The notes below the pieces were generated by a model. That model saw nothing but the letters and a program-made list of their open reading frames with translations, was not told the DNA's origin and did not search any database. Positions 4,111 through 36,192 of a stretch of DNA of 36,192 nt are shown one piece after another. The DNA is taken from the NCBI GenBank assembly GCA_003990765.1, contig RBNJ01000227.1:1-36192 (forward strand), in the 5' to 3' direction. The DNA comes from Jimgerdemannia flammicorona (Eukaryota). The position numbers were made by a program, and so were the translations under genes. Each line of letters opens with the position of its first letter. Within the stretch, counting starts at the first letter, position 1.

Positions 4111-4466
4111 AATATAATGACTGCTCATAAGGTTTTAGTCTGCAAATTATAACAGTATATCTTATAACCAGCAGATAATCTATCTGGACTATTTTCTAAG
4201 AGATATAGTATCAGTAACTACTTATCTATGAGACTTTCAAAGCCAGAGAAGTTTGAATCATCAACTGATTGGTCAAGATCAGAATTAAGCCCTTGCTCTA
4301 TATGAAGAGAGCAACTCTTCACTATTATACCAAAATATATATGGAAGATATCAGCTCATAAATACTACTTTTCAACCCTCTGTCAGAAGTTATAAGATTA
4401 GCAAATTTTTCAGACTAGACTAATGAATAAGAATATTCAAGAGAAGATTCTTATTCAGGAGAAAGA

Positions 4467-6032: not shown

Positions 6033-6107
6033 GTATAATTATTTTGTAGTTATTACTTAGTTATATTATATTTCTACTTATATTGTATATTATTTTATTA
6101 ATAGAAG

Positions 6108-6683
6108 TAGTACTCTGAATGAGCTGATCTAGATCAGATTCAAATCCCATTCAAATTGATTTGAATCAACTATTGTTTTGATTTCCAAATTAGACAATTA
6201 AATGTTTACATCAATAACTCAATAAATAATCATCTAATTTTGATGATCTTGATATCATTTAAAAGCTCTTAATAAGGCCTTTCTAATGATATCAAAAATA
6301 CTGAAATTAGATCATATATTGCTGAGTTATCAAGGAAAATATCTGACTTACCAATTTTGGAAATTATTCAACTTGTCAATTTTGGAAATTTCTTCAAAAG
6401 AATGTTTTCATTAATAGCTTAGTAATATATAATCTGATTTTAATGCTATTGGTATCATTAGAAAGACACTATTAAGGGCTTTCAAATAATACTAAGATTA
6501 TTAAAATTGGATGATTATTTATTAAGTTATTAATATATATAAACATTTAATTATCTAATTTGAAAATCAAAACAATGATTGATTTGAATCAATTCAGATA
6601 GAATTCAAATCCCATCTGAGATAGAATTCAATCCAAATCTAATCTAAATCTATCTGGATTAAATTGACTCATTTGATATACTA
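6108..6683. mobile_element. Non-autonomous hAT-like MITE with an internal ~190-bp inverted repeat
   Basis: 8-bp TSD AATAGAAG (6100-6107 and 6684-6691); imperfect TIRs TAGTACTCTGAATGAG.../...CTCATTTGATATACTA; arms ~6154-6342 and ~6402-6594 are reverse complements. An 8-bp TSD with TAG ends is typical of hAT. Confidence 0.8.
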
Positions 6684-6741
6684 AATAGAAGTATTAAAAT
6701 TCTCATTATTATATCTCAATAATATAGCTTATTCTGTAATA

Positions 6742-6910
6742 TAATACAGCCAAATTTGACTGTAAAAAAAAAAAAATTAAATTTTTAAAAATTTTTTTAA
6801 CTTGATAAAAAAAGTTAGAAAAGTTGAAATTTTTTGATTTTTTGATTTTCTTTTGATTTTTATAATATTTTTATAATAGTTTTTTTTTATAGCCAAATTT
6901 GACTATATTG
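6742..6910. mobile_element. Small MITE, probably Tc1/mariner type (TA target)
   Basis: ~30-bp TIRs (TAATACAGCCAAATTTGACTGTAAAAAAAA / TTTTTTTTATAGCCAAATTTGACTATATTG) flanked by TA on both sides. Confidence 0.65.
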
Positions 6911-9042: not shown

Positions 9043-9122
9043 ATAATTCAGTATCACATCAGAATACTAGTGTTGGCATAATTTGGTGTCACATCAGAAT
9101 ACTGGTGCTAGCATAATTTGGT
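9043..9122. repeat. 35-bp tandem repeat (~2.3 copies) in the LTR downstream of the ORF-X stop
   Basis: ATAATTCAGTATCACATCAGAATACTAGTGTTGGC / ATAATTTGGTGTCACATCAGAATACTGGTGCTAGC / ATAATTTGGT. Confidence 0.8.
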
Positions 9123-9135
9123 ATTACTAAGGGAC

Positions 9136-9988
9136 TTAGAGCAGAATATTCAAGACTATAGGGGCTTCATTTTCATCAGAGGTCAGGATATCTTTGAAGA
9201 AGATAAGGTCTGTGAATGTTTTATCCATCTTATTATCATTGAGTAGGTTGCATATTTTACATATATCACATAGTTCACTTATGTCATGCAGGATGACATC
9301 ATTATCAATGACATCATCATATTCAGCAGTAGCAGGAATAAGAAGGTCTGGGGCTCTCCAGTCTATAAGGTTCTCTTCCACAAAATAGGGAACAAATGTG
9401 GGATCTTGGGGAGGTCTAACCTGGATGCTTGGGCCTTGGAATACTGAGATCAATTCTTGCAGAAATTGGTCTGGATTGTCCTAGAGGATGGGATACCAGA
9501 AGTTTTCTACTTCATCACTATTGAGAGTGATAGTGGACTGGACTTCTGTAGCCACTCTGGCTTCTAGTACATTGATATAGTGAACTGATAGGTCTCTGAA
9601 GTCTGAGACTCTAACATACTCCAAGTTGGGGATTGACTATGGTACATACCTGAAGATCTGATGAATCTTCTTAGCTGTTCTTATTTCATATATCCATGGG
9701 AGTGGTATCTTGTAACTCTTAAGGGCTGGCCTGTGGGAACTCCCAGCAGAGGAGGTTTCCTATTTCATACTCCTGCTATATTTAGAGGCATTTAGTAGCA
9801 ATAGTGGTCCTTGTTTCCATTTTACAGCAGTAGAGAATAAAGTAATAAGGATCTACAGTACTCAGGTTAATACTAGGAGTCCTTCTTGTGTGGATCCTCA
9901 TGGCTCTTCTGATGTCTTAAAATATCCTTTCTTTGACTGAGGTGCCTTGGTGGTTTCTTGACCTTGAGGTTTGGCAAGCAGCAGACAT
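9136..9988 (-). pseudogene. ORF-X copy inside the 3' LTR of element A (~284 aa ancestral; stops and a 2-nt deletion)
   Basis: ATG at 9988; QIFRYVP*SIPNLEYVRVSDFRDLSVHYINVLEARVATEVQSTITLN...FWYPIL*DNPDQFLQELISVFQGPSIQ; the C-terminal part is track ORF 9136..9453. Confidence 0.8.
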
Positions 9989-10132
9989 TTTATTTATAGT
10001 AAATCTTTGAGCTATTTTGGGATTAGTGAGTCTTATTGAGTTGCTGCTACTATAGTTTTTTTTTTTTTTTATAGTCACTTAGACTCCACCTTTATTACCA
10101 GTCTATGAATAAATATACATTATTTCTACCCA

Positions 10133-13100
10133 CTATCCAATCCCCACAGGGGGGCCCCTCCCTACTTCCTCACAAATGAAAATTACCCTTTCACCAACTA
10201 CCTCAACTCGCCTCCCACTTTGCCCACAGATTTTCTCCACCAAGCAGCACCTCCGACCACCCCACATCCCCCAACCCAGCCACCAGTCTGTTAAGGTGTC
10301 TTCCATAAGCCTATGCCACCACAGCAACCAGTCCCCTAAGCTCTGTCTCCTCCCATCCTCAAAAACAAATAGCCAATGACTGGCCAGCCTCACCCAAATA
10401 GCCAAAGCCCAACCCAAAGTAAGCCACTCCTTCCCTATCCCCCCTACCAATCTATCCCTCAAGTTCTCCCACTGCCCCTGTACTCCATCACCCCTACCCC
10501 ATACCCCCAAGCAATCCCCAATTGTCTGCCAAAAATCCCCCAACACCTCACACTCTCCTAGCCAATGTTCTGGCATCTGTACATAACCCCCCTCCTGCCC
10601 TACATTATGGTACTCCTCACAGTCAAAGCAACCCCCTATGACAAGGTGCCCCAAGCAAAAGTTGAGCATAATATTCCTCTGCAGCATGCACCACCAGATC
10701 TCCCAGTACTTTGGCGGCAGCCACGTTCTCACTGCAGCACTCCAGGTCCAAACACCATACCAGTTCCACTCTTCACCAATTCCAACTCCTTGCCAACTGC
10801 TAGGCCACAGATCCTGGCCTGGTCCCCTTTGGCATTCCATTTTATTACCAATGTCGAACTCAATTAAAGGAGTGCCACCCAGCAGTATATGATCCCATCT
10901 CCACATTGCCAGGTCCCAATCCTCCTCTCCTTCATTCCCCTGCCAATGAATACCAATGCAGTGTACCCCTTCAGCAATCCCCCACCAAAATCCTTTATAT
11001 CACAGTTGGGCAGTGTTCTGAAGCCCAACCAAGGAGAGGAGATTGCCAGTTGAGCCCCTTGGCAATGTCTGCCTCTCCCATATCTTCTGTAGCAGAGGCA
11101 CCCATCCACCTTCTCTCAACTCCACCACTCTCTTCAGCCACCATGCTCTCAAGCAGTGTAACCATTTTGGAAAGTCAACCAGCCCAAGACTACCTCTTGC
11201 CACTGGTAGGGACAAGGTCTCCCAACTAATCTGACTCTACCTGCCAGCCCAGATCCATCTCTTTGCCAACTTCATCAATCTCTTCACCACCTAAGCCGAG
11301 AAGTCCAGATAATATGCCAGGTACCACAACTTTAGCAGCCAGTAGACATTCAAAATTGAGACCCACCCTGCTAGAGAAAAATGTCTTTCCCCCCAACTCT
11401 GCAGGGCCTCCTCCCAGATTCCAATTCTCTGCTCCCACCAAAGCCTGGGCAGAACTGATCCATAGACTGATAAGTAGATACCTAAGTACCATACTGCTTC
11501 ACTGGTGGGGACAATTGTTCCTATAACTTCCCCTCCCACCAGGCCATTGCCTAGCACCATTGTCTCACACTTATGCCAATTCAGCTTAGCTCCAGAGTAC
11601 TCCTCATACCACTCCACAGTCTTCTTGAGCTCCTCAATATCAGCAATCGACCCCAAACCCACCACCATGTCATCAGCAAAGGCCCCAACTTTCCATCCTA
11701 TGCCAAAGACAGAGAGCCCTGCTATCCTCTACCTAATTCAGTCCATAAGGGGTTCTAGGGAAAGAGCATACAAAATGGGAGACAGTGGATCCCCCTAGGG
11801 CACCCCCCTACCCAAGGGGAATGCTACCCCTCTATATCCATTACATGTGAGTGCAGCCCTACTCCCTTCCAGTAGGCTGACCATTGCTGACCAGAATTAT
11901 TGCAGAACCCTCATTCTATCTAAAACTTTCGCCAGCCAGACTCTTCGCACCCGGTCATATGCCTTCTCCTGGTCCAAGAAGACTAGATGCCCATCCAGTC
12001 CACAGGCCCTTGCTCCTTTGATAATGCCATGCACCCAGGCAGTGCCATCCCTGATGAGCTGACCACCCACAAATCCCCTCTGCTCAACACCCATAACTTG
12101 CTGGGCCACCTTCTATAGTCTTGCCACCACTACCTTAGTTACCAACTTTTTGTCCATATCTAGCAACATTATCAGCCACCAGTTCTTCCAATCCTCCCAC
12201 CTTCCTTTGTTTTTATAAAGCAGTATCACCAGCCCAAGGTCCTGCTCCCCCACCCACCTCCCTGTCTGTAGAATAAGGTCGCACAATGCTGTCATCTCTC
12301 CCATTACCCCTGGAACTCCAACCATTCGCTTCCAAAAGTCCCAGGGCAGACCATCCTCCCCAGGTGCCATACCTGGTGTTGTCGTGGTAAGAACCTAGTG
12401 GATCTCATCCTCCTGTACAGGCATCACCAGGTCCCCTAGCCCTTCGACTTGTGGTGGGTACCAATCCTCCAATGTTCATTCAATTGTAGCAGCATCTATC
12501 CCACCCTCCTCCTCACTTCACAATCCACTCCATCTCTCCTTCAGCAATCCAAGAATGTCCTGTACACTATGCACCAGTATACCATTGGAGTCCAATACCC
12601 CTTCCCACCATTGCTGTACTCACCTTGCCCTAAGGGCCCTTGTAAGAAGCTTGGAAGGCCTCTCTCTGTCCTCCAGATCCTGCTAGTGAAGACATGCTAC
12701 CAAGCTCTGTACCCTTGCCTCTTCCTCCTCCCACAGCACCTGTTGAAGTTCCCCAACCTCCATTTTCGCCCTCATTAATCTCCAATCTTCTTCTCCCTCC
12801 AATATTGTCAGCCTTGTCCACTCCTCCAGGAGCCTCATCAATCTAGCAGAGGCCCAATACACTCTTTACCTTCACTGCTTCCCTGCCTTCTTGCCAGCCT
12901 CCCTCTAGTAAATCCTGGCCATTTCTTTCATCCTCATCCACTGAGTCCCAACTGAGGCCCCTTCCTGCCTCCAGTTCTCCACCCTCAGCTGAATGTCTTT
13001 AGCCCACTCATCCCACCAGGTCTTGTCATCTAACAAAGAGAAATTGAGGTGCCAATGTCCAGGCCCATCCCCACTTCCCCCAAAGCACTCCTGTCTCAGA

Positions 13101-13789
13101 AGCCCCCAGTGATCCAACCATGGACACCATTCCACCTCCAGTGACTTCCAAACATCTAGTCCCCAGCAGCAGGCCATCAAAATCTAGTTGATTCTAGTCC
13201 CCAGACCCCCTGCCCAATGTGTATAGACTCTCCTATTCCCCCAGCACTCCCTTCCAGCATCTAATAGTGCACTTAGTCTTTCTACTTTCTCCTATGCCAC
13301 CAGTCCTCCACTCCTGCTCTCAGCACCTCATCCTCCATCTATTCTATCCAACAGTATGTCCCAAACCATATTGAAATCTCCCCCAAGCATATCCACCCCA
13401 GCCTCTGCAAGTAATTTACTCTTCTGTAAGCCTTTCACCCAATCTACTCTCTCACTCTATACCACAGGGCAGTAGCAGGAGCCAACCATAACTGGCTCCC
13501 AGCCTGCCTGAATCCACTCTCCCCAGACCAGTCTCTCCCTCCAGCACCATACATTCTGTATCTCCCCTCTGTCTTTCCTCACCAAAATCCCAACCTTGCC
13601 CTTCCAAATCACCACACCTCTCCATTTCTTCATCCATTTCATCCTATCAGAGTCATCTTTGCACCAGACATCCTGCAAGAGGAAGAGATCGGCCTCCAAT
13701 TCCTTCATCCAAGTAAAAATATTCCTACGTCAAGAAGCGCCCCATAACCCATTTATGTTCAAAGAGAAAATGTAGGTTGTACTGTTCAT
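10133..13789 (-). pseudogene. LINE ORF2: APE endonuclease - reverse transcriptase - C-terminal Cys/His motif (spans 1219 codons, many stops)
   Basis: FSLNING, DLFLLQD, GGDFN, GPGHWHLNFSLL; PGEDGLP, QRGFV, LDQEKAYDRV, GDPLSP, FADD (~11669-11680), YLG; CFDC...EHWLGEC. The main track fragments share one frame with the ATG at 13789. Confidence 0.92.
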
Positions 13790-13822
13790 AATGATGATAT
13801 ATGTTATGTTGTCAATTAGTCT

Positions 13823-15844
13823 CTACTGCTCCATGCTCATCTCCTCCTGCACCTTGTCCAGATTATGTTCCACAGCCACCTCCTCCTCTTCTGCCCTCTG
13901 AGCCTCCAATCCAGCCAGCAGTTCAGTCATCTCGCCATCTGCCTTCTCCTCAAACTTCTCTTGGTATTTGATGCATGCCTTCTGCAAGAGCTGTAGTCCA
14001 TGATACTTATTCCAGCAGTATTCAGCCCTCTCTCCAGCAATGACCGCCATCTCTACCTCCCTCTCCTTATCTACCTCATACCCTTCCTCCTCCAGATACA
14101 CTGCAAGAATTTCCACCTTCAATGCTCTCATGATGCCATCCCCCTACAGTATCTCTGCCCAATGTTCATCACTTATCACTCACAAGTCCACTTCCCCCAA
14201 CTCTTCCGCTGCCAGGTTATTCATCATCCAGCATATCCAAAGCAAGTTCCCCACCTCTTTTCCCCCCAGAGTCACTGGCCTCTCTCCATCCAACATTGTG
14301 GTGTCAGCTCCAGCACTTGCAGACTCATCCCATACCTCCGGGACATCTACTAGTTCCTCCTCACCAGCTGCCATCACCTGTCCTCCATATGTCACCTCCA
14401 GAACTCCAAATTGCACCCTCTGGGCCCCTCGCATTGGCACATCTTCTACCACCCTGTTCCGGGAAGCCAGGCCATGCCTGATGAGCAGGGTAGGGGTAGG
14501 GGAGCCCCCCCAGTCCTTCTCCCAAACCTCCAGTATACCATCCACATACAGGTTCTTCCTAGCCTTCTCCTTGTCCTCCCCCACCTCCTCCTTGTCCTTC
14601 CCCTTCCCCTTGCCAGCCCAGACACTTGCTTCAGTACCCCCTGTGCCCTTCACCTTGCTCGCCTCTCCCAGTGGTCTGCTATCCAGCTTGGCCAGCAACT
14701 TCTTCTGTCTCTTATGCCCCTGAGCCCTTTCCCACTGCTCCTTGGTCACTCGAATCCACTTTCCATCCACCACCTCCAAGTGTGTCGACTCCACAAAGGC
14801 CTCTCAAGCCTTCACTCGCCTCTCTACAGTATCACCCAGCTCTTCTAGTGCTTCCAATAAATCCTCCTCCTCCTCCTCACTCCCCTTCACCTTTGTCACC
14901 TTATACAGGATTGCTCTCCAGACCATCGCCGAAGGCCAGTCCCTTGCCTTTCCAGTGGCTTCTTTCCCAGCCAGCTGAATTCTCACATCCACGTCATCAG
15001 TCTGGAGCAAGGTCCCTTCCCAGACCCTGAATCTGATATCCACCACCTCTCTATATTCTGCCATAAAATCCTCAACTCTCTTCCTTATCTCTATCACCAT
15101 CACCATCGGCACTCCTTTCACCAGCAGTTGGACCACCCTGGGGTCCCACTTCAGGCACCGCACCATTGGAACACACACCTCCCCAACCACCAATCTAACC
15201 TTCAGCACCTCCTCCAGTGGTGCTACCTCCTCAAAACCCACCTCCACTCCTTCCAGTCCCTTCAAAAACTTCACAGATGCAGCTCCTGCCACCTGCTTTG
15301 CAATGAGCCCCAGTACCATTTTCGCCATCACCACTAGGCCCTGGAAGCATAGTGTGACTGCGAATGCTGAAATCGATTTTTTGAGTAATGGGGCCACCAC
15401 CAGACCCATTACACCATCTGCCAAGTCCCCTTGTCTTCTAAGCCTCAGCCACTCAGCACCATCAGCCATCATATCTGGATTTTTTTCCAGATTGACAGTT
15501 CCACCACCATCAGCAGTCACACCCCCCCCAGCTGCTACTCCCCCTGCTCCACTGCCCCCCCTTCCAAGGACCACTCCCCCCTGCACTGTCACCTTCTCGG
15601 TCTCCTTGCCCTTCCTCAGCCAGCCCTCCAGCCCTGACGCCTGCTGTCTCCCCTTCACCATCTCTGCAAAGCTCACCCTCCCAGATCCTGATCCTCCACC
15701 ACCTCCTCTACCCCTTCCACATCTACCCACTAGCAGGCCCCTCATACCCCCTCCCAGGCCTGGACCCCTCCCCACCTGCTGCCAGTTGAAAGCACTTAGG
15801 CCACCCTGCCCAGTATGTACCTCAGGTTGCCTGTCAGTTGCTAT
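13823..15844 (-). pseudogene. LINE ORF1 (Gly-rich N-terminus, probable RRM-like middle, acidic C-terminus; ~674 codons with stops)
   Basis: Track ORFs 14804..15775, 14180..14794 and 13823..14131 share one frame; probable start ATA (ex-ATG) at 15844; sits 5' of ORF2. Confidence 0.75.
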
Positions 15845-16122
15845 GATATTAGTCTCTTTTCGCCAAAAATGATATTAAAAGTGCCTTCCAAAGGTTGTAT
15901 AACTTGAATGGTACTGGAAAGAGCCCATATTGTGCTGCTACTATAGTTTCTTGATCCTTCTTTTATATTTCTCAAGATGTCTATACTGTGGTTACAATGA
16001 CTCACAGTGGATCATAATTGCTCATCTTGTATGCTGTATGATCTTCTTATGCTCCAATCTAGTAACTTGTAAGGAAAGGCTGTCTCCTGTACTGATGTCA
16101 TCATTCTGGAGTCACTGTTATA

Positions 16123-16132
16123 TCTTCCTCCT
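16123..16132 (-). other. Polypurine tract of element A (AGGAGGAAGA)
   Basis: Directly abuts the LTR start at 16122; same arrangement at 4457-4466. Confidence 0.8.
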
Positions 16133-16435
16133 GAATAAGGATCTTCTTGAGTATCCTTATTCATTAGTCTAGTCCTGAAAAATTTACTGATCCCATAACC
16201 TCTAGCAAGGGGTTGAAAAGTATTATTTATGGGCTAATGTCTTCTCTATGTATTTTGGCATGATGGTGAAGAGTTGCTCTCTTCATATAGAGCAAGGGCC
16301 TGATTCTGATCTTGATCAATCAGTTGATGGTTTGAACTTCTCTGGCTTCAAAAGTCTCATAGATGAGTAGTTGCTAGTACTGTATCCCTTAGAGAATGGT
16401 CCAGACAGATAGCCTGCTGGTCACAGAATATGCTG

Positions 16436-19400
16436 TTATGATTCGCAGACTAGAACCTCATGGGCAGTTATCTAGTTTTGCTTCTCTTATATAGGTTTAT
16501 GGTACTTCTTGAGTCTGTTCCTGTATACTATGGTAGGCAGTATAGTCTCTGAGATTTTTCTAAGCTAGAAGGTAGTTTCCTTGATATCTTGTATATAGAG
16601 GGTCCTTTCCATTTGTACTTCAGTTTTCATAACCATGAGGCTTCTACCATATTTCAATATAGTAGGACCTTTTCTTCGATTTGAATGGGTTCTAGGGTCT
16701 TGTGATTCTTTTCTGCATTTTTTCTTATCAGTACTTGTGACTTGATGATGTGATCTTCAGCCTTCTTTCTGATTTGGTGTAGTCTCCAGATTTCTGCATT
16801 GACCCATCTCCAAGTTAAGTCTAGATTTGTGGCTGAGGTTCTATCAGAATCTTCTTCTCTGAAGAGCAGTTCTCTTGGAGTAAAGTGTGTGCTCTGTGAC
16901 TATATGTCTCATAGGACAGAGAGGGCAGTTGGGAGGTAGTTATCCTAATTCTCATATGTCTCTGAGATTTTCATCAGGATGTTCTTGAGGGTCTTGTTGG
17001 TTCTTTCTATCTGTCCATTTCCTTGAGGGTAGTATGCAGTGGTCTTGATGTGCTGAATCTTGTATTTCTGATACATTATCTCATAAAATCTATTGACAAA
17101 TTCTGTACTGCAGTCTGTGGTGATTTGCCTTGGTGTCTTGTAGTGGCAGATGATTTCTCAGTATAAGAAGTCAGCTATAGAGAGAACATTGGTTTCTTAT
17201 AATGCTCTTGCTTCTATCTATTTGGTAAAGAGGTCTATAATAACTATAATATAGCAGTTTCCTGATATTGTTACTAATAGTGGCTCAATGATATCTATTG
17301 TGATATGGTGGAAGGGGATAGGCTCAATTCTTGATGACCTAGATATCTGGTCTTACTGATCTTGTTTCTGTTTTTGACACTTATCATACCCTTTGACAAA
17401 TTGGCATAGGTCTTCTTTTATTTTGGACCACCACATAGTTCTTCTTGCCTTATTGTATGTATTGGTTCCTCTTAGGTATCCTTGCTTATGTACTTCTTTC
17501 ATTACTTGATACTTCTTGTATTCAGATATTACTAGTTTTTCTCCTTTTCTGAGTATAGTGTTATCTAGTTCAAACTATTTCTAAGTCTAGTTGATGATAG
17601 TGATTGTCCAGGGTTTGAGGTGGTTGGGCATCTTCTGCTGCCTAAGATAGCTGATTAATTTATAGTATAACTCCTTATTCATATTGAATAGTCTTGATGG
17701 GGGTGTTTCAGAGTATCCTTGAGAGTATATCAGCATTAGTATTAGTTCTTTCTAAGCAGTACTTGACAGTACAGTCATACTCTTGCAGCCTGTAGATCTA
17801 TCTGATATATATTCCTTTGGGGTTCAGAGTGTGGAATAGCCAGGCAAGAGCAGAATGGTCTGTTTGAATAGTGAAGTGTTTTCTGGCTAGGTAGTAGTGG
17901 AACTTGTCTACTATCTAAACTACTGCTAAGCATTTGAGCTTACATGACTTGTAGTTCTGTTTTGCTCTGTAGGTACCTCAGCTTACATAGGAGATGACAT
18001 ATTTATGTCTATCTTTCTTCTGAGCTAAGACTGCTCCAAGTCCTATAGTACTCACATCTATTTGTAGGATGAATTCTAGGTTCCAATCTGGTCTTCTGAG
18101 GATAGGTGCTTGGGTCAATCTAGTCTTGAGTTTATTGAAGATTTCTTGGCATTTCTTGGTCCATTTGAATTTGGTCTCCTTCTTCAGTAGCTTGTAGATA
18201 GGTGCTATAATATTGGAGTATCCTTTAATGAATCTTCTGTAGTAGGAGGCTAGTCTAAGAAAGGCATGGACTTCTATAGTTGTTCTGGGTCTTGGGTAGG
18301 CTGCAATAGTCTTGATCTTCATGGAGTCTGTATAGATTCTAGTTTAGTTGATGAGGTGTCCTAGGTAGGCAATTTTCTGAGTAGCAAACTTGCATTTCTT
18401 GGGCTTGATGTAGAGGCCATACTCCTTGAGCTTCTTGAGGGCTAGCTGTATGTGATTGATATGTTCTCATGCAGTATTGCTGAAGATGATCACAATATCA
18501 ATATAGACAAAGAGCCATTTTTCAATCTTGTTACTGAAGACTCTGTTTATCAATTACTGAAAACTTACTAGGGCATTACACATTCCAAACAGTATTTGCA
18601 GGTAGATATAGGTGGCATCAGGTATGATGAAGGCTGATTTCTCACTGGTATCTTGAGTGAGACCAATCTGATGGAAGCCTGAGAATAGATCTAAGGTGGT
18701 ATAGTATTTGGCTTCACTTTCAAAGAGTGGTAAGGATTTCTTGAATATTTGGTAAGGGCTGCCTATCCTTCTTAATGATTGTATTGAGCTTCCTGTAATT
18801 AATGCAGAGTCTTAGTACAAACTCTCCAGGCTTGCTTCCTTTTTTTGAGGCAAGGATAATGGGTGAAGCCTAGGGACTGATAGCTTGCTTGATAATTCTG
18901 GCTTCTTTCATTTCCTTGAGTTCTGCTCACAGCCATTCTCTGTAGGCAGGTGGTATAGGTCTGGCTTTCTGATAGATGGGCTTGGTATTATCAGTGTCAA
19001 CTTCATGATAGTACTTGGGTTCTTGATTATAGATATCCCTGAAGTCTATAGCAAGTACTCCTTTATTCTGGTGTAAGAACTTGAGAAGTTATTCTTTTAG
19101 AGAAAAGTTTTCTCCAATAGTATATATATACTTGTTTTGGTCCCTGTCTTTCTTGTACTTAAGTTTGGTGATCTTGGTGGCAGTATAGGCTCCTCTTCCA
19201 GTAGATCCAAAGTCTTGTTCTCCTCTCTTAGTCTTGATGAGTTTGATGGCTTCAGTGATCTTGAGCTTCTTAATTTCATAGATCAGTATCTGGCCAATTC
19301 TGTCATACTTCTTGACTTCAAATAGAGTGATGGGGTTGTGATTCCTAACTATGAGGAAGATCTTGCCAGTGTAATCAGAGTCAATTACTCCTCCTTCAAC

Positions 19401-19453
19401 TGAGATTTCACTTTTGGCCAGACTGCTCCTAGTCTTAATAATTCTAGTATAGT
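16436..19453 (-). pseudogene. pol: Element A pol, 3' part: dUTPase C-half - RT - RNase H - integrase (no chromodomain)
   Basis: TRSSLAK, GGVIDSDYTG, DRIGQ, RGEQDFGSTG; decayed YIDD near 18495-18505; FLRLASYYRRFIKGYS; LQIDVSTIGLGAVL, QTDHSAL; TTAYYPQGNGQIERTN; KWKGP and VYRNRLKKY; stop at 16436-16438. Confidence 0.9.
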
Positions 19454-20260
19454 TGTAATAGAATGAGCGAACAGATGGGATGCAATGAGATGAACAATCA
19501 TGTGACCCGGCGATGACATCATCATATGATCAAGCATGGCATATGGATAACGAGTGATGAATGATGTAAATGAACAACACAGAAAATGATATTTAGCTTA
19601 TCCCTGACAACCAGCACTGCAGCAACAATTGCCATAGCTACTGATCATTGCTTAGTAATTGAGGTCCTGATCACAAAGACATTTTTTACCAAAAACCACC
19701 TGACAAAGGTCATAATCACAAACCTCATTATAGTTACCAAATTAGTCACTCATACTTAGTCAGAAATTGCAGACCAACTTGTATAAATACCCCCCAGTTT
19801 CCATCTGAAATAAAGCAGTTTTAGTTTAGTCCTTGATACTAGAATCAAGTCCCCCCCATACACACACATTCCCCTGAGTCTTAGTAATGACATCTAAGTG
19901 ACTCTAGTGTTTCTGACTAAACTCCAGAAGCCTAGCTAACTTCTGCCAGAACTGAGACTGGTATATAAATCCCCAAAGACTTAAGTAAACCCATTGAACC
20001 TGAATTTCAAGGCAAATTCAGTCTGTGCACAACAAAGAACAAGACCCTCGAAATAGGGCACAAGAGAAAGACCTTTGAAACAGAAGGCAAACTAGAGAAA
20101 GACCTTTGAAAGATAAGGCACTGCTGCTACAACTACTTTAAGTGAGCACTTCCTCAAACTGAAGGCTTCTTGGTACACATTGTGTACTAAGTCCCTAAGT
20201 AATAGTTCACTTCCCTAATTATTCAAAGAATAAGAGGGGGTAGAAGTGAGAGTTATTACA
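19454..20260 (+). repeat. 5' LTR of B (807 bp)
   Basis: Direct repeat of 27835-28611; TATAAATA 19782-19789; AATAAA 19809-19814. Confidence 0.95.
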
Positions 20261-22229: not shown

Positions 22230-22645
22230 TCATCAAAGTACAGAAGATATGGTACAAGGCTACCATCCCCACTAAGGCCCACCCAACTGATGCTGGATAT
22301 GATCTTTATAGTAGCCAAGACCTCACCATCCCACCAAGCACCAATGCTACAGTGCGAATAGAAATTGCAATGCAAGCTCTCAAAGGAACATACATCTGCC
22401 TTGCTGAACAAAGCAGCCTAGCCAAAGAGTTCAACATTGGGCTAGGAGGAGGAGTAGTTGACCAAGAATTTACTGGTGAAATCTGTGTCATCTTGTGAAA
22501 TTTTGGAGACACATCATTTGAAGTCAAAGCAGGCCAAAGAATTGCCCAAGCAATCATTGAAAAAATCCATCAAGATCTCACTATTGAAGAAGTCTCTGAA
22601 CTCTCCCAGACAGATCGTGGCAAGAAAGGGTTTGGATCTATCAAT
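22230..22645 (+). pseudogene. dut: dUTPase domain of B (between nucleocapsid knuckle and protease)
   Basis: All five trimeric dUTPase motifs are recognisable; motif 2 RSS is decayed to QSS and there is one TGA. Confidence 0.9.
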
Positions 22646-25600: not shown

Positions 25601-26920
25601 TGCTGTTATAAGCAAAATGATTGGAACAAGTACCTAGCTTATGCTGAGTTTGCCTACAACAACAGTCAGCAAACCTCCACAAAGAAGACTCCATTCTTTC
25701 TGAACCATGGTCAACACCCAAGGACCCCAAGTACTACTGCAAAATCAGCAGTCCCAGCAGCCCAAGATCTGGCTGAGACCATTTCTGACCTTACCCAAAT
25801 GACAAGAGATGCTCTCATAGAAGTACAAGACTACCAGACTAAGTACATGAACTTGAAGTGAAGAGAAGTCTCCTACAATATTGGTGATATGGTCATGCTT
25901 AGAACAGACCACCTCTATCCAGACACTCTGACACAACAACCAGCTAAGAAACTCCATGCTAGAAGAATTGGACCATACAAGATCATGGAAAAAATCAGCA
26001 AAGTCAACTACAAGTTACAACTTCCCCACAATATCCGAGTACACCCAGTATTCCATATCAGCCAATTGATGGACTACCATGAGAACCCATTCCCCAAGCA
26101 TACAGTTCCACTACTACCCCCAATTAGGATCAATGATCATGAGAAATTTGAAATTGAGGAAGTACTTGACCACAAGGTCCACAAATATCCTAAAACAGTC
26201 AAGCACTTTTTTCTGATCAAGTGGAAGGGATATCCCACCCACAATGCCACCTGGGAAAAAGAAGAAGCCCTGAAGAATGCATGTGAAGCCCTCCAGGACT
26301 ATATGGAAACACTCACCCCCCAGCAAAGGAAGGAACTATAGCTCTAAGTATAGGAGTACATAGCGAGTAGAAGGATACCACATATTTTTATCTGGAAACA
26401 TATAATACCAAATATTGCAAAAAAAGGAACACTATGGATAACCAACAAAAAGATATTCTGAACAAAAGAACAATCTAGTACAGTACAGCAAAACACATTT
26501 GAACAACTCTATTTCACGCTATCTGTGTCATCTCCACTGGATGATGATGGATGCTTCATGTGAAACTTAGGAAAGCCGACAATGTCGAAACCCATCTAAG
26601 TCCATTCATGTGACAGATATTGTTACTAGGAATTGCCTCAGATTACAAGAAAAGTCTATTTCCAAGAGGTTTGAACCCCCAGCCACGACAATGGGAGCCC
26701 TCGCCCTAGACAAGAATGACTAGTCCTCGCAAATGCGCCAACCAGACAAAAAAAAAGTGGACCAAGACCTATTAACCCTGTGTAACCACAACTATGGATA
26801 ACAAGATCTTTGAAATCAGGATTTTCTCATGTGACCAGCACATGCTCTGCTTACAGCACAGGTCATGCATTTTGCCAGAAAGTGTGACCAAAGGAAGGTC
26901 ACATCAGACAGGTGAATAAG

Positions 26921-26928
26921 TATAAATA
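26921..26928 (+). promoter_or_regulatory. Putative internal TATA box for ORF-X of B
   Basis: TATAAATA ~70 nt upstream of the ORF-X start; analogous placement in family A. Confidence 0.45.
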
Positions 26929-26992: not shown

Positions 26993-27823
26993 ATACCTGC
27001 CACCCACTGCCAAACTGTCTGCCGTAGCCAGCCCCTCCCAAGCCAGGTTGACTGCCTCTTTGGACACATCCAGGTTGCTATCCAAGGAAGGAACCACCGC
27101 TCAGAGGCTCTTAACCTCTCCAGTCCAGACCTAGGATAGTATGTCCTTGACCACCATAAAATTATTGAAAGGGCCTACCTCGCTACTAGCCACTTAGAAA
27201 TCTGGCACGAATATGAAATTGGTCACCAGCTTCTCCAACATACAAGTGGCCTATCTACGGACCAGGTCTCTGACTGGACTCACCTAGACAGGCATGAGCA
27301 AAGACTTGCCAAGAAGGTCTATCAAATCATGTGCCATGCACCCTTCACAATCCCCAACCTCAACTACATACAACTGAAGGACTTCCAGAACCTCTCTTTC
27401 CCTGAGGTTGATGCCCTAGAAGTCAAGGTCGCCCAAGAAGCCAACTCCTGGATTACCCTCAAGTCTACTAACTACAAACCCTACTGGAGCCCCCTCCTGA
27501 ATGACAACCCTGACCAATGGCTCCAAGGTCTCTCTGACCTCTTTGAAGGACCACCTATCCAAATAGATATTCCCAGACATGAAGATCAAGAGCTCTACTT
27601 AGATGGCCCCAACTGCATCAGATGGAGAACCCCTACACCAGCACCTATTCCAATGCAAGAACCATTTGCAGACCTCATTGACTTCTCCATTCTGGACAGT
27701 GAGCCATCTGCAACCACCACCTCCTCTGCCCCTGAAGAAGATGGTAATGACCCTGAGGAGGATTCCCCACCTTTCTCTCCCCTAGTTCTCAATTTCTCAA
27801 TTAACAAGGACATTGATTTCTAA
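26993..27823 (+). pseudogene. Accessory ORF-X of element B (276 aa; start ATA ex-ATG; one internal TAG at 27137-27139)
   Basis: Track ORFs 26912..27139 and 27329..27823 share one frame and are joined by open codons; homologous to family-A ORF-X; the stop overlaps the PPT. Confidence 0.85.
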
Positions 27824-27834
27824 GGGGAGAAGAA
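27822..27834 (+). other. Polypurine tract of B (AAGGGGAGAAGAA)
   Basis: Directly precedes TGTAAT at 27835. Confidence 0.9.
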
Positions 27835-28611
27835 TGTAATAGAACAAGTGAACAGATGGGATGCAACAAGATGAACGATCACGTGACCTGGTGATGACGT
27901 CATCATACAATCGAGTGTGACATATAGATAACGAGTGATGAACGATGTAAATAAACAATATGGAAAATGATATTTAGCTTATCTCTGACAACTGGCGCCA
28001 CAGCAACAGTTGCCACAGCTGCTGATCATTGCCTAGTAATTGAGGTCCTGATCATAAAGACATTCTTTACCAAAAACCACCTGACAAAGGTCGTGATCAC
28101 AAACCTCATTATAGTTACCAAATTAGTCACTCATACTTAGTCAGAAATTGCAGACCAACTTGTATAAATACCCCCCAGTTTCCATCCGAAATAAAGCAGT
28201 TTTAGTTCAGTCCTTGATACCAGAATCAAGTCCCCCCCACATACACACATTCTCCTGAGTCTTAGTAATGACATCTAAGTGACTCTAGTGTTTCTGACTA
28301 AACTTCAGAAGCCTAGCTAACTTCTGCCAGAACTGAGACTGATATATAAATCCCCAAAGACTTAAGTAAACCCATTGAACCTGAATTCCAAGGCAAATTC
28401 AGTCTGTGTATAGCAAAGAACAAGACCCTCGAAATAGGGCACAAGAGAAAGACCTTTGAAAGATAAGGTACTACTGTTACAACTACTTTAAGTGAGCACT
28501 TCCTCAAACTGAAGACTTCTTGGTACATATTGTATACTAAGTCCCTAAGTAATAGTCCACTTCTCTAATTATCCAAAGGATAAGAGAGGGGTAGAAGTGA
28601 GAGTTATTACA
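27835..28611 (+). repeat. 3' LTR of B (777 bp)
   Basis: Direct repeat of 19454-20260, lacking one 31-bp unit and with one extra base. Confidence 0.95.
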
Positions 28612-29425
28612 ATAGTTCTCTGGCAGCTTGACTCCAATTCCAGTGCCAAGTAGAGTGGTGGTCTGTGGTTCAAGGGTAGTATCTTGAATGCTGGCAAGGT
28701 CTATTTCTATAGCTCCTTCAGTCTTATATTCTGGGATCTTAGCTTTGGGGTAAAACTTTTTGACCTTGAGAGTGATATCTGGTTCTTATTCCTCCTTATC
28801 ATTACTATTAGCTTGAAGCTTGGGGGGCTGGTCATCTTCTTTGACTTTCCTTTTTGATTCTGCAGCTTCTTGCTCATATTTCTATTGGCAGATTTTTCTG
28901 ACTTCACTGATATAGGACCAGTAGTCATTCAGGTGTTCAGAGCAGTACATCCTAGTACCATGGGGGCATCTTCCTTGAGGAGTATAGCCATCAATGATCT
29001 TGTTGTACCACTGCTCATCTGTGAGCTTGGGTGTCTTGTTCTTGTTCTTGTTCACTAAGTGTATGAAGACTTCTGTGTCCTCCTCATCTCCTTCCTTCAT
29101 GTCTAGTAGAACTTCTTTGTAGACATTGATAGAGACTCATATCTTTCTTCCTCTATAGTTGATCTGCATCTTCTGGGCATTGAGATCAATGATGGCCTTG
29201 GCCTTGTAATACCATTGGTTACTAATGAGAATGTCATAGTTGGTGGTGCTTGTAACAATTACATCTACTGAGATGGTAGCTCTTCCTATCTTAATTGGGA
29301 CTTCTTGGATTTTGCTAAGAGGGGTAGCTCATATACATATCATCTGCTATAATATAGACCATCTTGGTAGACTCTTCAATATCTCAGCCTAGGTGGTTAA
29401 TTGCCTTCTTGCTCATGAGGTATTC
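28612..29425 (-). pseudogene. pol: Element A pol, 5' part: protease C-half - CxHG ZF - dUTPase N-half
   Basis: YLMSKKAINHLG...YDILISNQW (protease); WYNKIIDGYTPQGRCPHGTRMY; LKVKKFYPKAKIPEYKTEGAIEIDLAS...GTGIGVKLPENY, which continues in frame at 19453. Confidence 0.88.
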
Positions 29426-31493
29426 TGTAAGTACACAACCTCCAAGCTACTGAAATCACATGTCACCCTCTGATTAAGCCACCGAAATCACACACAACAA
29501 CTGAACAAACCTGGAAATCACCTATATGATTATAAAGCTGAGTCAAACAGAAGTCATAGTACATAAAGCTGAGTCAATATGAAGTTATGGAATATAAGAT
29601 TTATATAAACAGAATCTTACCAATCAGGACTAAATGCATATATACCAAGTACTAAGACATGTCAAAACAGAGAACTAAAACAAACTAAACAAATAACCCC
29701 AACTCTTGAATATATACAAATATGACCACTGAAATCTACAACTATATCTGTGCTGATATTTGGAATACTATTGTCAACCAAGCCACACCCCCTCTGCCCC
29801 TCATAAATATTCATAGCCTAGTACTGCTCTACTTCATGAAAGCCTGATGGAATGCCCTGAACATGCTTAGTAAAGTCTACCAAATTGGACAAATCTCAAG
29901 CTACTACCAGATCAGCTGCCTCCTGGAAGACATGGTCAAATACTACTATAATACAGATATTACTCAGATGTCTCAACACTAGAAACTCATTGCCCACAAA
30001 CATCGAGAACTCTTTTACAAGTATAGCACTATTATCCCCTACCTCTGAGTCACTACCACCAAAATAGTTGCTACTCTATCCTATGGCCAAATCGATGATA
30101 TAATATAAGAACTCAACCACAAGTACATCGAGTATATCCAGACCACAGACAGAACCTTTCCGCACCCTGATGATCATATTCTGCAAATGCCTCAAGTCAG
30201 ATATACTATGAAGGATGTCTATAATATAATCCAATTTGATGAAGATGAAGCAGAAGACAATGATCCCTCTGATGTCAATATGACCTCAAGTCAAGGATCC
30301 TTACCAACCCTAATCACTCCACCAATCTTACCAATAGACTTACAACAGTTCATATCCATCTATGAAACTTATTGGGATAATGACTATTGGTATAAATACT
30401 AACTCATATTTACTCCTGATTACTTCAACTATAATGAAGAAACTGGAGAACATAATCTATATCTTCAGACAACTCTTGAGATCAAACCAACCACTCTATC
30501 ACCCAAGTATGAGTGATATGAACTACAGCTGCCAGCTTACTACAACCCTGCAACTTATAGTGCTATAACCTATAGAAGATATGCAGATAGTGAATCTGAT
30601 GAAAGTGAAGATGATGTACCCCTCCTTCATCCACCAATACCTTACTCAGCATATGAGACAGATGATATTATCCTGTAGAATGGTGATGAAGTTCCAATAT
30701 ATTACTATCTCAGCAAACAGGAAGAATTAATCTGCAAACAACTCTTTCTAGATGACTACTTTATCAGAGATGATATCATTAATGGTGATGTCATCAAAGA
30801 CTACCCAGATAGTGTCTAAATCTATAGATAGTCTAATAGTTATAGTATAGTTAGATTAGCCTTGTATAATATGACTGTGAACTGACTCAGCAGTCAGATA
30901 ATCTCTTTATATATCAGATCACACTTATACTATATAACTACATTCTGACTCAGTGCTATATTCATATTCAGCATAGTCTAGATAGCCCCTCACTAGTATA
31001 AATATTCCCTCTCCCAGACCTCAGAATCTTAGACTTGAATACTTGAACAATCTGAGCACAACTCCTGAGCACTTCTCCACAATATTCCTTTATACAACCA
31101 CTCCTAGTATAGTAATATCATAAATAGCGAATAAACCTATTTAATAACTCACAAACTACTCTTAAGTAAATCTGCTCCCCATTAGATCCCACTTCTAACC
31201 CTGTTATGAAATTTCCTAATTGGGTATTGTCTGTAGCAATATGCTAATTCAACTAAGCTGGTCTTAGTTTCTTAAACTTCCTAAAATACAGAAAATCCTG
31301 AATATCTAGAATTAGTCCAAAAAGGGACTTTGGTTGAGATGTTAACTCAATCTTGAAATCAATAAGTATAGAGGATATACTCCATATGAAATTGATCTTG
31401 ACCTTAAGAAAATAGTCTTTCTGAATATTCAGAACTTCCAGAAAATCCTTCCAGAACTATGTAATGGTTACCCTAACAAGTAACCCTCTTACA
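29426..31493 (+). repeat. Putative 5' LTR of C (2068 bp)
   Basis: TGTAAG...CTTACA 6-bp inverted termini, followed by a PBS; TATAAATA near 30997 and AATAAA near 31130. No second copy in the window. Confidence 0.75.
29722..30819 (+). pseudogene. LTR-encoded ORF of C (365 codons, 7 in-frame stops, no frameshift); probable remote ORF-X homologue
   Basis: One frame from ATG 29722 to TAA 30817-30819 that includes track ORF 30187..30402; every stop reverts by one C->T change. Confidence 0.7.
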
Positions 31494-31514: not shown

Positions 31515-34500
31515 ATTCAATTCTACTTCAAGATGCTTCCTTACTCCACTACAAACTCCTCTGAGAATTTCTACAAGTTGATATAAAGCCCAATCTCTGA
31601 ACTGGAATTTATCCTGAACCACCTAACAATCTGGAGAGAATTGAACCTAATGTATAAGGACAATTTGACCTCCACATCTACAACAAGTGGGACAAACTTT
31701 ATTTAAAGAAAGAAGTACTCTAGTTAAATCAGCAGATAGACAAAATCCTATTCACCAAACTTCTTACTCTACACCCTGCAAGTCAAGATGAAGAAGGTCT
31801 TATAGAAGCCTTCTTTACCCTTCTTAACAAGAGTTTTGTCAGCTCTACAAATCCAAGCAATCTAGGACAATCAGCAGCAGTCTTTCTAGCCTTAGTTCCT
31901 TATAAAGCCCAAGCCTCTGTAGCTAAGTGGCTCAACTCTACTGATTTTCACTGCACTAGGACCAAGACCACATTATACTACTGATTCCAGAATTGCAAGG
32001 TCTGCCATATTCTTAAGGAAGAAGCAAGGAAAACTCTCTGCCAACAATCTGACCCTAAATCTGAAGCAGGCTCTACTATAGCTCTACTTGAACCTGAAAC
32101 CAACACTGAACCAGAACTTGACTTTGAATTAAGTCCATCTGAAATCAGATATACAACTGATTCTGTTTACTTCAATGCTGAGCAAACTCAACTATATAGG
32201 GACCAAGCTAAAGAGGAGGAGGAGTATCTCAGTAAATTTGATCCCAGATATACTACTGAAGGAGACACACCTCCATCAGGACAGAATATACCTATACAGT
32301 AACAGATAGCTATCTATTGAGCTCTCACTCCAGACCCATAACTATTACTCCAGCAACTTACACAGACCCAAAGAACTCCATCACACTCTGCACCAGTATC
32401 TCAAGTAGTACCAGTAACACCACTACCAGTAGTCTAACTACCTCTAGCAAACAATATAGTGAATTAATAGATTCTAGACCTTACAGCCCAGATAGCAATA
32501 ATGGTAGTAACTATTACTGCCTTAGCTGAACAAATCTGACCTACCAAAAATCTGAGCCTACCTACCTTCAATGGTACTGCACAAGAAGTCCAAAGCTTCA
32601 TTAGTGTAGTTGACACCAACTTTGAAGCCAATCAATAGACCAATGAGTGAGTGGCTGACTGCCTTCTGACAAACAATCAAGACCACACTCTGGAACAACT
32701 CTTTGCTACTACTACAGCCTATGTCTGCCAAGTTGTTACATTCTTCTAAGGACCTGCTGAAGAATGGTAGTGAACTCTTCCTGAAAAACCCCTCACATAG
32801 GACATGTGACCTGCAGTAGTTACCCAAAATGTAGCAAATAATACCCCAGGATATGGAGCCCATCCTGTAGCTCCTAAACTCAAACAACTCATAATTGGTC
32901 AATACTGCAGTGAAACCATGATTGCTGAATCTCGAGTAAAACTCCACAACCTCAAATTCAATATATATAGCAAAGAAGAATTTGAAACCTTCTGTACAAA
33001 ACTTAAGTTACTCCTAAATACTGTTGGCCTAGGATATATTGCTAATGATGAAGTACAAAATGGTATAAGAGCAGATCATCTATTCAATGCACTATCTGAA
33101 TGGCTTATAAGAAAAATCAGAGAACAAGGATGCCCAGTTGGTTGTGATCACTAACAATGGTACCTGGTAAGAATCAAGACCATGGTCAAGTGAATCCTAA
33201 CAGCTGGACCAATTCTGCCCTAAAGACAATTCAACAACAAGGAAAAGACTTGGACCAAGAAAGAAGAATCCAAGTATGAAATATTCCAAGCTCTCTCTAC
33301 ATCCACCTCTTGAATACTTAGAAATCATGAATCCACCCAGCTGAGTATCTTCAAGAAACTCACTGAAGGAGAAAGGAATGAACTTCAAAGAAGTGGAGCA
33401 TGTTTCTATTACTAAAAGACAAGATATGTGGCCAGTGCCTGCCTTAACTGAAAACCCCAAACAACAATATGAGCAACTGTTACTACTCTGCACCACCTCA
33501 ATAACCTGACTACCAGAACACTGGACTTTGTCAAGTTATGACAAACTGCTAAGGCCCCAACCAAAGGAAGTCAAAAGGCAGCTGGATATGACCTGTATAC
33601 AGCCAAAGAAGCTATAGTTTCCAACCAAGAAGTCAAGCAAGTCTATATAGGAATCAGCATTCAAATCTCTGAAGGACATGTTGGAAGAATATGCTGTTAC
33701 AGCAGCCTAGCATTAAAAGAACTTTTAGTAGAATGAGGAGTCATTGATGAAGATTACACAGGCAAAATTATTGTCCTCATCTGAAACCATAGTTGGACAT
33801 CCTTCAAGAACCCTATTGGCTTCTGTATTGCCTAGATCCTATTTGAGAAAATTGAATCAACTCTAATAGTCAAGGAAGTCCCTGAACTACTGCCCACCAT
33901 CTGAGGATCCAAAGGATTTGGCTCATCAAACAAGGCCCCAGCCCAATCTACTATAAACAAAGAAGAACAATTCTACAAGAAAATTGAAGATAGATATATA
34001 CCAAGTGGCTGATGTCTTCATGGCATTAGAATGTACTCTTCTCAAATAATTGATGATTGCTTCTCTTGTATCAATGAACTGACTCAAAGAAGAACCAATA
34101 GAAAGAAAGCTCCTACAACTGAAATTACTACCATTGAATTAGACAAACTGCTTACACTTTAAGCTTTTGTCAACCGAGTATCTGTCAAGATTATAATAGA
34201 CAGTGGTGTCTCAGGCAACTTCATCAATGAAGAAATAACCAATAGACTCAAGGTCTTCATCTCTCCAGTATAACAAACTCAAGTAGTTGCCACAGCTGAT
34301 GAAACCTCACATGTTATTAGCAAGGAAGTCTGCAATCTACCCTTCCGAATTGGTGACTACCAAGTATATATTACCCTCCAGATCATACCACTCTCCAATA
34401 ATGAAATAATCCTTGGGACTCCATAGTTAAAACAAGAGAACCCCATGATCAATTGGGTAAACCATTCTCTGACCATCAAGAAAGGATGTTATAACTTCAA

Positions 34501-35912
34501 ACTATAAGGTGAAAAGAACCCACTCAGCTCTAGTGACCCTAGACCAAAGATCACCCACATCAACAAGCTATAGCTCAAGAAATTGGCCAAGAAATGTTCT
34601 CTCTTTGCCATCTCCATCCACCCATCCAAAGGAGAACCCAAGAACTCTGAAGAAGACTTTTCCAAAGTCAACAGCCATGTTAGACCCCTACTCTAGAAAT
34701 TTCGAGACATATTTCTGAAGAAACTCCCAAAAGGCCTACCTCCTAAATGAGCAGTAGACTATGTCATCAAGACTATTCCAGATGCCAAGCCAGTCTTCAA
34801 GTCAATCTACTACATGTCTCTGAGAGAAATTGATATACTCAAGAAAGAAATTAATGAACTCCTAGAACAAGAATTCATTAGACCAAGTGTATTACCATAT
34901 AGTGCACCAGTTCTCTTTGTTGTAAAGAAAGGAGGAGACCTTTGAATATGTATTGATTACTATGACCTCAATGAACAGACCATTAAGAACTGTTATCCAC
35001 TACCCAGAATCAATGAAATATTCAATAGACTTACTAACCCACAATTCATAAGCTCTTTTGATCTGTGAAATAGTTACTGGCAAATTGCTATGAAAGAAGA
35101 AGACATCTACAAAACAGCCTTCTGAACTCACTATAGACACTTCAAGTTTCTGGTTATGCCTTTTGGCTTAACTAATGCTCCTACAATCTTCCAGACCCTG
35201 ATGAATACTATTCTGTACCCATATCTGGACAAATTCATTATTGTCTACATCGATGACATTCTAGTCTTCAGCAAAACCCTGGAGGAACATCTCGAACACC
35301 TTAAACTAGTGCTACTGAAACTCCAAGAAAACCAACTCTTTATAAAACTTAGCAAATATGAATTTCTTTTAAAAGAAATTTAATTCCTTGGACACATTGT
35401 CATGCCAAATAGAATCAAAGTAGACCTCAGCAAAATCTCTGCAATCAAAGATTGGCCCAGACTCAAGAAGCTGAAAGACCTCTAGTTATTCCTGGGATTA
35501 GTAAACTATTATAGATAATTTGTTACCAACTTTGCCAAGATTGCTACTGCCCTTACCCAAATGACCAAATATAGCAAGAAAGAAGAACAGCCCTGGACCA
35601 TGAAATAAGAAAAAGACTTCAACAATCTTGTTAACTGGGGACCCAAGCAAGATACTGCCTTTCAAGTACTGAAGGATATCTTGATAACTACTCTAGTACT
35701 TTAAGCAGCAAACCCTGCCCTACCATACAAAGTTACTACTAATGCCTCTGACCTAGCCCTTGGAGCAGTACTCATACAAGAAGAACACCCAGTAGTCTAT
35801 CATTCCTGCAAGTTCAATGATACTGAAATCAACTATGCAACCTATGAGAAGAAAATGCTAGCCATTGTAGACACTCTGATTAAATAGCAACCATATTTAA
35901 AAGGAGCATATT
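31515..35912 (+). pseudogene. gag-pol: Element C gag-pol: N-extension - capsid - CCHC - dUTPase - CxHG ZF - protease - RT - partial RNase H
   Basis: LPTFNG; NGIRADHLFNALSEWL (B has NGIRANHLFIALPDWL); decayed knuckle 33401-33442; [58 protein letters not shown]. Confidence 0.9.
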
Positions 35913-36192
35913 TTAATATTTGATTTTATATATTCAGCAGAATCCTATTGCTTATCAATTTACCAGAAGAGAGACTAGATTCCAGATATTATTCTTAATA
36001 AATAAATCATATTTCTCATATAGCATTTTTTTACTTCTTTCTATTGTCTGAGTATATGGCTTTATTATAGTATACTGGCTCACCAGTTATTACTATATAG
36101 GTGCACTTATAGATATAGTTTATGTAATATTGTTTACTATTATAATAGAATGTCTTAAGGTCTCAATAATCTCCTAAATTCACTTTGACTTT

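Follow-up and report, generated by a model that had tools for sequence, protein, structure and literature searches.

The question raised by this locus is whether the extra open reading frame between pol and the 3′ LTR of a chromodomain Gypsy element (element B) is a real gene, and how a related frame came to lie in a long repeat of a second Gypsy family (family A). The frame, here called ORF-X, was analysed in a window of 36,192 nucleotides, the window being the whole stretch of DNA under study. Extra genes of LTR retrotransposons are known and mostly unexplained, and they have barely been studied in fungi. ORF-X is a useful case as it is selected, contains no known domain, is preceded by its own promoter-like element, and is found on opposite sides of the PPT in two related lineages. 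The best explanation overall, to which a probability of about 0.7 is given, is that ORF-X is an inherited accessory gene with its own TATA box which in family A has probably moved into U3. It would then be an accessory gene of approximately 250–340 codons, belonging to a dUTPase-bearing group of Ty3/Gypsy elements whose host is probably a soil-dwelling fungus. A truffle-like or other soil fungus is a guess at the host, drawn from the C-to-T hypermutation, the CpG depletion, the chromodomain, and the dUTPase (compare PMC2864245 and PMC12581995), and from soil and root metagenomes, with small shares, among the public runs listed for this sequence; none of the 12 runs listed is recorded as RNA.

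Retroelements of the Window

Several retroelements are nested in the window, with element B lying within the dUTPase of element A. The main features are listed below.

19454–20260, + strand: 5′ LTR of B, with the 5-bp target duplication ATAGT at 19449–19453 and 28612–28616
22256–22640, + strand: dUTPase of B, between the gag zinc knuckle and the protease, as also in element C
25862–26338, + strand: end of B pol with integrase SH3 and chromodomain (Pfam, Chromo E 1.7e-12)
27835–28611, + strand: 3′ LTR of B, TGTAATAG...TTATTACA, with a TATA at about 28163 and AATAAA at about 28189
29328–29140, − strand: protease of A
28746–28612 and 19445–19200, − strand: dUTPase of A, between protease and RT
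17574–16948, − strand: integrase of A, after RT and RNase H
10058–15932, − strand: LINE that has a poly(A) tail and is flanked by a 16-bp target duplication (AACTATAGTAGCAGCA); remnants of its endonuclease and RT are recognisable, and it interrupts the 3′ repeat of A
32789–36192, + strand: element C, a Gypsy element with gag, dUTPase, protease, RT and RNase H, cut by the right window edge

Pfam domains found inside element B are zf-CCHC, dUTPase, protease, RT, RNase H, integrase, SH3 and a chromodomain that ends at 26338, giving the order gag-dUTPase-PR-RT-RH-IN-chromo. The order in element A is gag-PR-dUTPase-RT-RH-IN without a chromodomain; its pol frame ends at 16487–16489, and a chromodomain would not fit. 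The first-pass annotation had described ORF-X as shared by two Gypsy lineages of different architecture, and the domain maps bear this out, both in the chromodomain and in the position of the dUTPase. Element C is closer to B, with an RT identity of 43–55%. A strongly mutated C-like RNase H fragment was also observed at 3664–3941 (−), directly left of the second copy of the A repeat.

Aligned over 775 positions, the 5′ and 3′ LTRs of B are separated by 58 transitions and not a single transversion, and their identity rises from 88.9% to 99.7% under purine/pyrimidine coding. The transitions occur in the contexts CpA (17), CpG (11), CpC (11), and CpT (5), with an ambiguous neighbour in 14. These differences are repeat-induced-mutation-like damage and not the result of ordinary ageing. 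The observed/expected CpG ratio is 0.05–0.13 over the whole window, and GC content is only 20–21% in 3001–4000 and 6001–9000. A direct duplication (6200–6333 and 6400–6533, 87% identical under purine/pyrimidine coding) lies in a featureless AT-rich stretch between the facing A repeats. The LINE is not hypermutated like its surroundings, with a GC content of about 50%, an observed/expected CpG ratio of 0.13, and a GC skew of about −0.45. Matched at 80% likeness, contigs of four public runs (X1, X2, X4, and X11) represent all three families (A, LINE, and B), and LINE-free joints (10038/15933) were found in contigs of three of them (X1, X4, and X11).

ORF-X of Element B

In plant Ty3/Gypsy elements, extra ORFs located 3′ of pol and ahead of the 3′ LTR form an established class, termed aORFs (PMC7264820, in the part of it available). 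ORF-X of B has the same placement, being an ORF besides gag and pol that lies between pol and the 3′ LTR.

26993–27823, + strand: ORF-X of element B, a pseudogene copy (translation, tblastn, and alignment of members)
26921–26928, + strand: TATAAATA box, the putative own promoter of B ORF-X, 72 nt from the start codon by hand count
27822–27834, + strand: PPT of B, AAGGGGAGAAGAA, overlapping the ORF-X stop and directly followed by the 3′ LTR, as in L001

In translation, the first codon of the B copy is ATA where intact relatives have ATG, and a single in-frame TAG is present at 27137–27139. No frameshifts were found, and the frame closes with a TAA at 27821–27823. The same 3′ layout is seen in L001, the single ORF-X locus obtained from a scan of metagenome contigs (1535 bp, intact, from soil). 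Both in B and in L001 the stop codon overlaps the PPT, and the LTR start TGTAATA comes at once after it.

ORF-X Copies of Family A

Three further loci in the window contain ORF-X, all of them of the A type.

3–341, − strand: A copy 1, with an intact ATG (341) and 113 open codons, the rest being cut by the window edge
4725–5582, + strand: A copy 2, with 8 in-frame stops and two frame changes
9136–9988, − strand: A copy 3, with its ATG at 9988, 6 in-frame stops, and one frame change

A tblastn search of the window with the B peptide matched 9925–9292 (−) at 55 of 134 residues (41%, 1 gap) with a further 21 of 59 (E 6e-29), 278–6 (−) at 32 of 91 (E 6e-13), and 4834–5190 (+) at 42 of 123 (E 6e-11). 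Searching the window with further members of the family yielded no loci beyond these four. The first-pass annotation had reported an alignment of well above 100 aa between the B and A frames. This was reproduced over 134 aa with a score that is significant (E 6e-29); all four quoted pairs of strings are present in the tblastn alignments or at the C-terminus of the A copy, and the hand count of 16 identities in 37 was correct on recount. Intact A-type proteins gave similar results: P0015 is 34.8% identical to B ORF-X over 267 aa, and P0003 matches B at E 3.4e-38 against 1.84 billion representatives, which places the homology of A and B far beyond chance.

A copy 1 is 77% identical to P0015. An MPA... 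start is common to P0015 and L001, and corresponds to the ATA of B and to the ATGs of the A copies at 9988 and 341. All complete copies of ORF-X in the window are dead, having been inactivated by C-to-T hypermutation. A copy 1 belongs to an A-like element with an internal deletion in which the ORF-X start is intact. In this element (1–1263, −), the protease region at 621–1263 (like 28789–29426) is joined at 585/621 straight to repeat position 358, and dUTPase through integrase are therefore missing.

Intact Relatives and Selection

An exhaustive phmmer search of 1,835,955,588 representatives gave only 5 proteins at E ≤0.001, none of which is named or exceeds 342 aa. Word-indexed profile searches led to about 20 metagenome protein clusters related to ORF-X. 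All of these relatives are encoded on ENA or JGI/IMG metagenome contigs and are either unnamed or labelled "hypothetical protein". Intact ORFs of 247–342 aa occur among them, and the relatives form three or four subfamilies with 30–57% mutual identity.

B type: P0001, P0002 (342 aa), and the L001 ORF (291 aa)
A type: P0015 (271 aa, full length), P0003, and others
Third type: P0006 (325 aa) and others
Further branch: P0018

Scans of viral contigs for ORF-X found nothing, and no named relative was found in the ESM Atlas, where the best match was an unnamed 244-aa cluster (score 0.93).

A codon alignment of B and L001 (271 codons) gave pN 0.25 and pS 0.67, corresponding to a dN/dS of 0.19, a value that is only rough, given the hypermutation of B and a dS close to saturation, but whose direction is clear. 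The differences number 86, 59, and 131 at the three codon positions. The ratio is far from the value near 1 that would speak against conserved function, and it indicates that ORF-X is a real, selected gene. Together with the intact metagenome ORFs, it upholds the selection proposed earlier. By its pattern of substitution, ORF-X is a true protein-coding accessory gene under purifying selection.

These data also bear on the idea that ORF-X is a transduced fragment of a host gene and does nothing for the element. Host-sequence capture by LTR elements is documented in the available part of PMC7264820, where captured ORFs are typically present in one or a few copies, whereas ORF-X is found in several lineages. 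Moreover, the few matches among the representatives include no named protein and none longer than 342 aa, the position of ORF-X is the same in two lineages and L001, its promoter-like region is conserved, and the dN/dS of 0.19 points to selection. An origin by transduction is therefore considered improbable.

Descent or Exchange

The occurrence of ORF-X in two architecturally different lineages had been taken in the first-pass annotation as a sign of probable modular exchange. Such an exchange would have passed ORF-X between unrelated Gypsy lineages through recombination or template switching. A and B do differ in the position of dUTPase, the chromodomain, and LTR length, and no similarity could be detected between their gag regions. 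Extra ORFs common to diverse retroelements are also described for rotifers in the available part of PMC5408684. However, the window copies of ORF-X (35–41% identical between A and B) are no more alike than RT (33–36%), RNase H (34%), integrase (32%), or the C-terminal part of dUTPase (43% over 81 aa), a comparison that is rough because the pol identities come from mutated copies. The layouts of A and B are collinear, the pol stop and the ORF-X start being separated by about 640 nt in family A and by 655 nt in element B.

Since ORF-X identity is about that of pol and the spacing is the same, shared descent suffices and modular exchange is not needed. The differences in dUTPase position and chromodomain show that other rearrangements have taken place in the A and B lineages, which leaves some room for exchange, although it is rather unlikely. 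The preferred reading, judged from these identities and spacings, is that ORF-X most likely came down to A and B from a shared ancestor that already carried it.

Position of ORF-X Relative to the LTR

In family B, the PPT stands after ORF-X and the gene is internal; an ORF downstream of the PPT, as expected of an LTR-borne gene, is not found there. The layout of family A is different.

16476–16489, − strand: A pol stop (16487–16489) overlapping the purine run AAGAGAAGCAAAA (16476–16488), the probable PPT of A, upstream of ORF-X
15933–16470, − strand: proximal part of the A long repeat, carrying the ORF-X TATAAAAG at 15960–15967 and split from the rest by the LINE
8638–10057, − strand: distal part of the A long repeat, probable 3′ LTR, with ORF-X followed by TATATAAATA at about 8880 and AATAAA at about 8850
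4118–6032, + strand: A long repeat copy 2, with the two ends of copy 3 and unrelated flanks, a probable solo or orphan LTR

The A repeat is a unit of about 1.95 kb (LINE excluded) which extends from the purine run to about 8638 and recurs in inverted orientation at 4118–6032. Within the unit, ORF-X starts at position 619, and a second TATA with AATAAA, resembling the LTR promoter of B, is located at 1732. No purine run was found 3′ of the A ORF-X. With the PPT upstream of the gene, the A ORF-X is probably within an LTR of about 1.95 kb. ORF-X had been placed in the LTR of A without reservation; the purine run at the pol stop and the repeat ends shared by copies 2 and 3 agree with that placement, and as the 5′ LTR of A was not found in the window, it is probable rather than certain. 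The repeat boundaries and the purine run thus suggest that the unit is the LTR of A, with ORF-X in its U3.

A purine/pyrimidine-coded BLAST of the window showed no further copies of the A repeat after score filtering, before which the short-word search gave thousands of chance matches. The TG/CA ends of the repeat are ambiguous in this AT-rich, mutated DNA. A candidate target duplication of copy 2 (ATATAA and GTATAA) was rejected as too weak in such AT-rich sequence.

A shift of the PPT to a place right after pol would account for the arrangement in A, since ORF-X would thereby have become part of U3. Each element would in that case contain two copies of the gene, and each solo LTR one. If the U3 reading is true, every LTR, solo LTRs included, would be a self-contained protein gene. 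The contrast between A and B is in effect a natural experiment on LTR growth and on a gene riding inside an LTR. The probable move of ORF-X into the LTR of family A is the most unusual point of this system. Keyword searches of the literature, which are blind to sequence families, found no account of the ORF-X family, of a fungal element with a gene borne in its LTR, or of a self-contained LTR-borne regulator gene outside retroviruses.

Promoter-Like Region and Leader

ORF-X is a stand-alone frame located 3′ in the element, and a TATA box precedes its start by 72–87 nt. By hand count the distance from TATA to start codon is 72 nt in B, 80 nt in L001, and 87 nt in A copy 1.

L001 296–303: TATAAAAG box of L001, 80 nt 5′ of the ATG and homologous to the B box

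The earlier claim of a TATA box 70–90 nt upstream is accurate for these three loci. One correction concerns TATAAATAAA, which abuts the ATG in A copy 3 and is a C-to-T artefact, since A copy 1 has CCACAAATAAA at that place. In A copy 3 the LINE insertion stands between the true TATA and the ORF-X ATG. Upstream of the L001 ATG there are stops in all three frames, and ORF-X is therefore not a tail of pol. Based on this organization, a short ORF-X mRNA would start from the gene's own TATA promoter and run to the LTR poly(A) signal.

A leader, GACTTACCACAAA, is found immediately 5′ of the ATG in both A copy 1 and L001. The coding DNA of these two is only about 60% identical, whereas their leaders are near-identical. 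The leader may be a translation or processing signal. The near-identical stretch AAAGACTTACCACAAA, which abuts the ORF-X ATG, lies at 348–363 (−) in A copy 1 and at 360–375 in L001.

Protein Features and Possible Roles

No credible match to ORF-X was found in Pfam, PHROGs, NCBIfam, or the sequences of the PDB. Matches to Apo-CIII (E 0.02) and ATG5_HBR (E 0.13) were each obtained with one of six members and are not credible. Two AlphaFold models (pLDDT 46.6 and 44.1) gave no match in a fold search; with models this poor, the lack of a known fold carries little weight. Both models contain a helical core to about residue 190, followed by a short hairpin and an unstructured tail of low confidence. 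Long helices are predicted at residues 50–86 of ORF-X. The ORF-X family is undescribed in the resources searched, in line with the remark in the first-pass annotation that it was not recognised.

The N-terminal 50 residues of ORF-X are neutral to basic and hydrophilic. Strong acidity marks the last 50–130 residues, in which F-x-D-L-I-x-F and V/I-L-N-F recur as motifs, and the net charge of the last ~50 residues is −3 to −13 (pI of the protein 4.6–4.9). In all four members analysed, the highest 19-residue Kyte-Doolittle mean is 0.59–1.07. These values agree with the earlier observation of an acidic/Pro-rich tail and no transmembrane segment. Overall, the N-terminus of the protein is weakly basic, its core of about 190 residues is alpha-helical, and the acidic tail is disordered and contains hydrophobic motifs.

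An env-like or cell-to-cell movement protein would fit the position of ORF-X, which is that of env, in sense orientation after pol and before the 3′ LTR. Its sequence does not fit: a hydrophobic segment is absent from all four members, the N-terminus is basic and hydrophilic, and the protein is acidic and helical. This role is very improbable, as had been supposed when the frame was first annotated.

Genes found at such a place in complex retroviruses are regulatory. Activation domains are usually acidic and studded with aromatic and leucine residues. Based on the analogy with retroviral 3′ genes and the resemblance of the tail to an activation domain, a regulator or adaptor is ranked first among the possible roles and a helper of the RNA or particle second. 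As a tentative proposal, ORF-X may act in trans as a regulator or adaptor, its tail drawing in host machinery, for instance so that promoters of the element itself are activated. The trans-activator or anti-silencing role considered plausible in the first-pass annotation would fit the composition, with an acidic tail rich in hydrophobic motifs, and the separate TATA box. A more specific version, which is less probable, is that of a trans-acting regulator (activator or anti-silencing factor) which is encoded by the element, has its own promoter, and was brought into U3 together with that promoter by the PPT shift in A. If ORF-X regulates transcription or silencing, regulatory genes also evolve in retrotransposons outside retroviruses. 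A regulator could also help to explain how elements expanded in a genome that heavily mutates its repeats.

ORF-X could instead work not on transcription but on the RNA or particle of the element, with a helper function in export, packaging, or assembly comparable to that of CERV in Cer1. Ty3/Gypsy accessory proteins with such roles exist according to the available part of PMC10309623, and the helical core with its long predicted helices would suit them. Neither an RNA-binding motif nor a zinc knuckle was found in ORF-X, however, and its alignment showed no likeness to B gag, the one gag compared (hhalign probability 0.14%). A helper of this kind is thus rather doubtful, and the regulator or adaptor is retained as the first candidate.

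Comparison with Known Extra Genes

Two retroviral genes are similar to ORF-X in their organization. Tas (Bel1) of foamy viruses is encoded by a 3′-end gene of about 300 codons with an internal promoter, and its C-terminal part is acidic. ORF-X is similar in size, 3′ place, promoter-like element, and acidic C-terminal part, but no sequence similarity to Tas was detected. The sag gene of MMTV, a mammalian retrovirus, is located in U3 of the LTR and encodes a membrane glycoprotein. It shares with the family A ORF-X a place within the LTR, probable in the case of A, but Sag has no likeness to ORF-X in sequence or composition, and ORF-X of B is outside the LTR. As for a VANC-type anti-silencing protein, as found in VANDAL elements, a Pfam search of ORF-X gave no family match.

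Among retrotransposons, the plant aORFs resemble ORF-X in position, in their presence across copies and lineages, in being conserved like other element proteins, and in having no assigned function (PMC7264820, in the part available). Recurrence of this kind is seen for ORF-X in four window loci and about 20 metagenome clusters, with a dN/dS of 0.19 and an identity close to that of pol. In contrast to ORF-X, which lacks a membrane segment and probably has a fungal host, the sense-strand aORFs of plants are env-like in that account, and no sequence relation was found between them. The rotifer ORF3 types in the available part of PMC5408684 are also comparable, in that one extra ORF recurs in retroelements of different build, some of which have a dUTPase. 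They have recognisable enzymatic or env-like domains and cross element classes, whereas the carriers of ORF-X are both Gypsy and of similar divergence.

In fungi, an antisense extra ORF, brtn, is described for Boty (BcGypsy1 of Botrytis cinerea) in the available parts of PMC7264820 and 10.1101/2021.04.13.439636, and an "add. ORF" is drawn for some chromoviruses in the figure 3 legend of PMC2864245. By description only, both are like ORF-X in being extra ORFs located 3′ of pol in fungal Gypsy elements; brtn is antisense and ORF-X sense. The position of the dUTPase, which differs between A and B, also varies among the fungal Gypsy elements described in the available part of PMC2864245.
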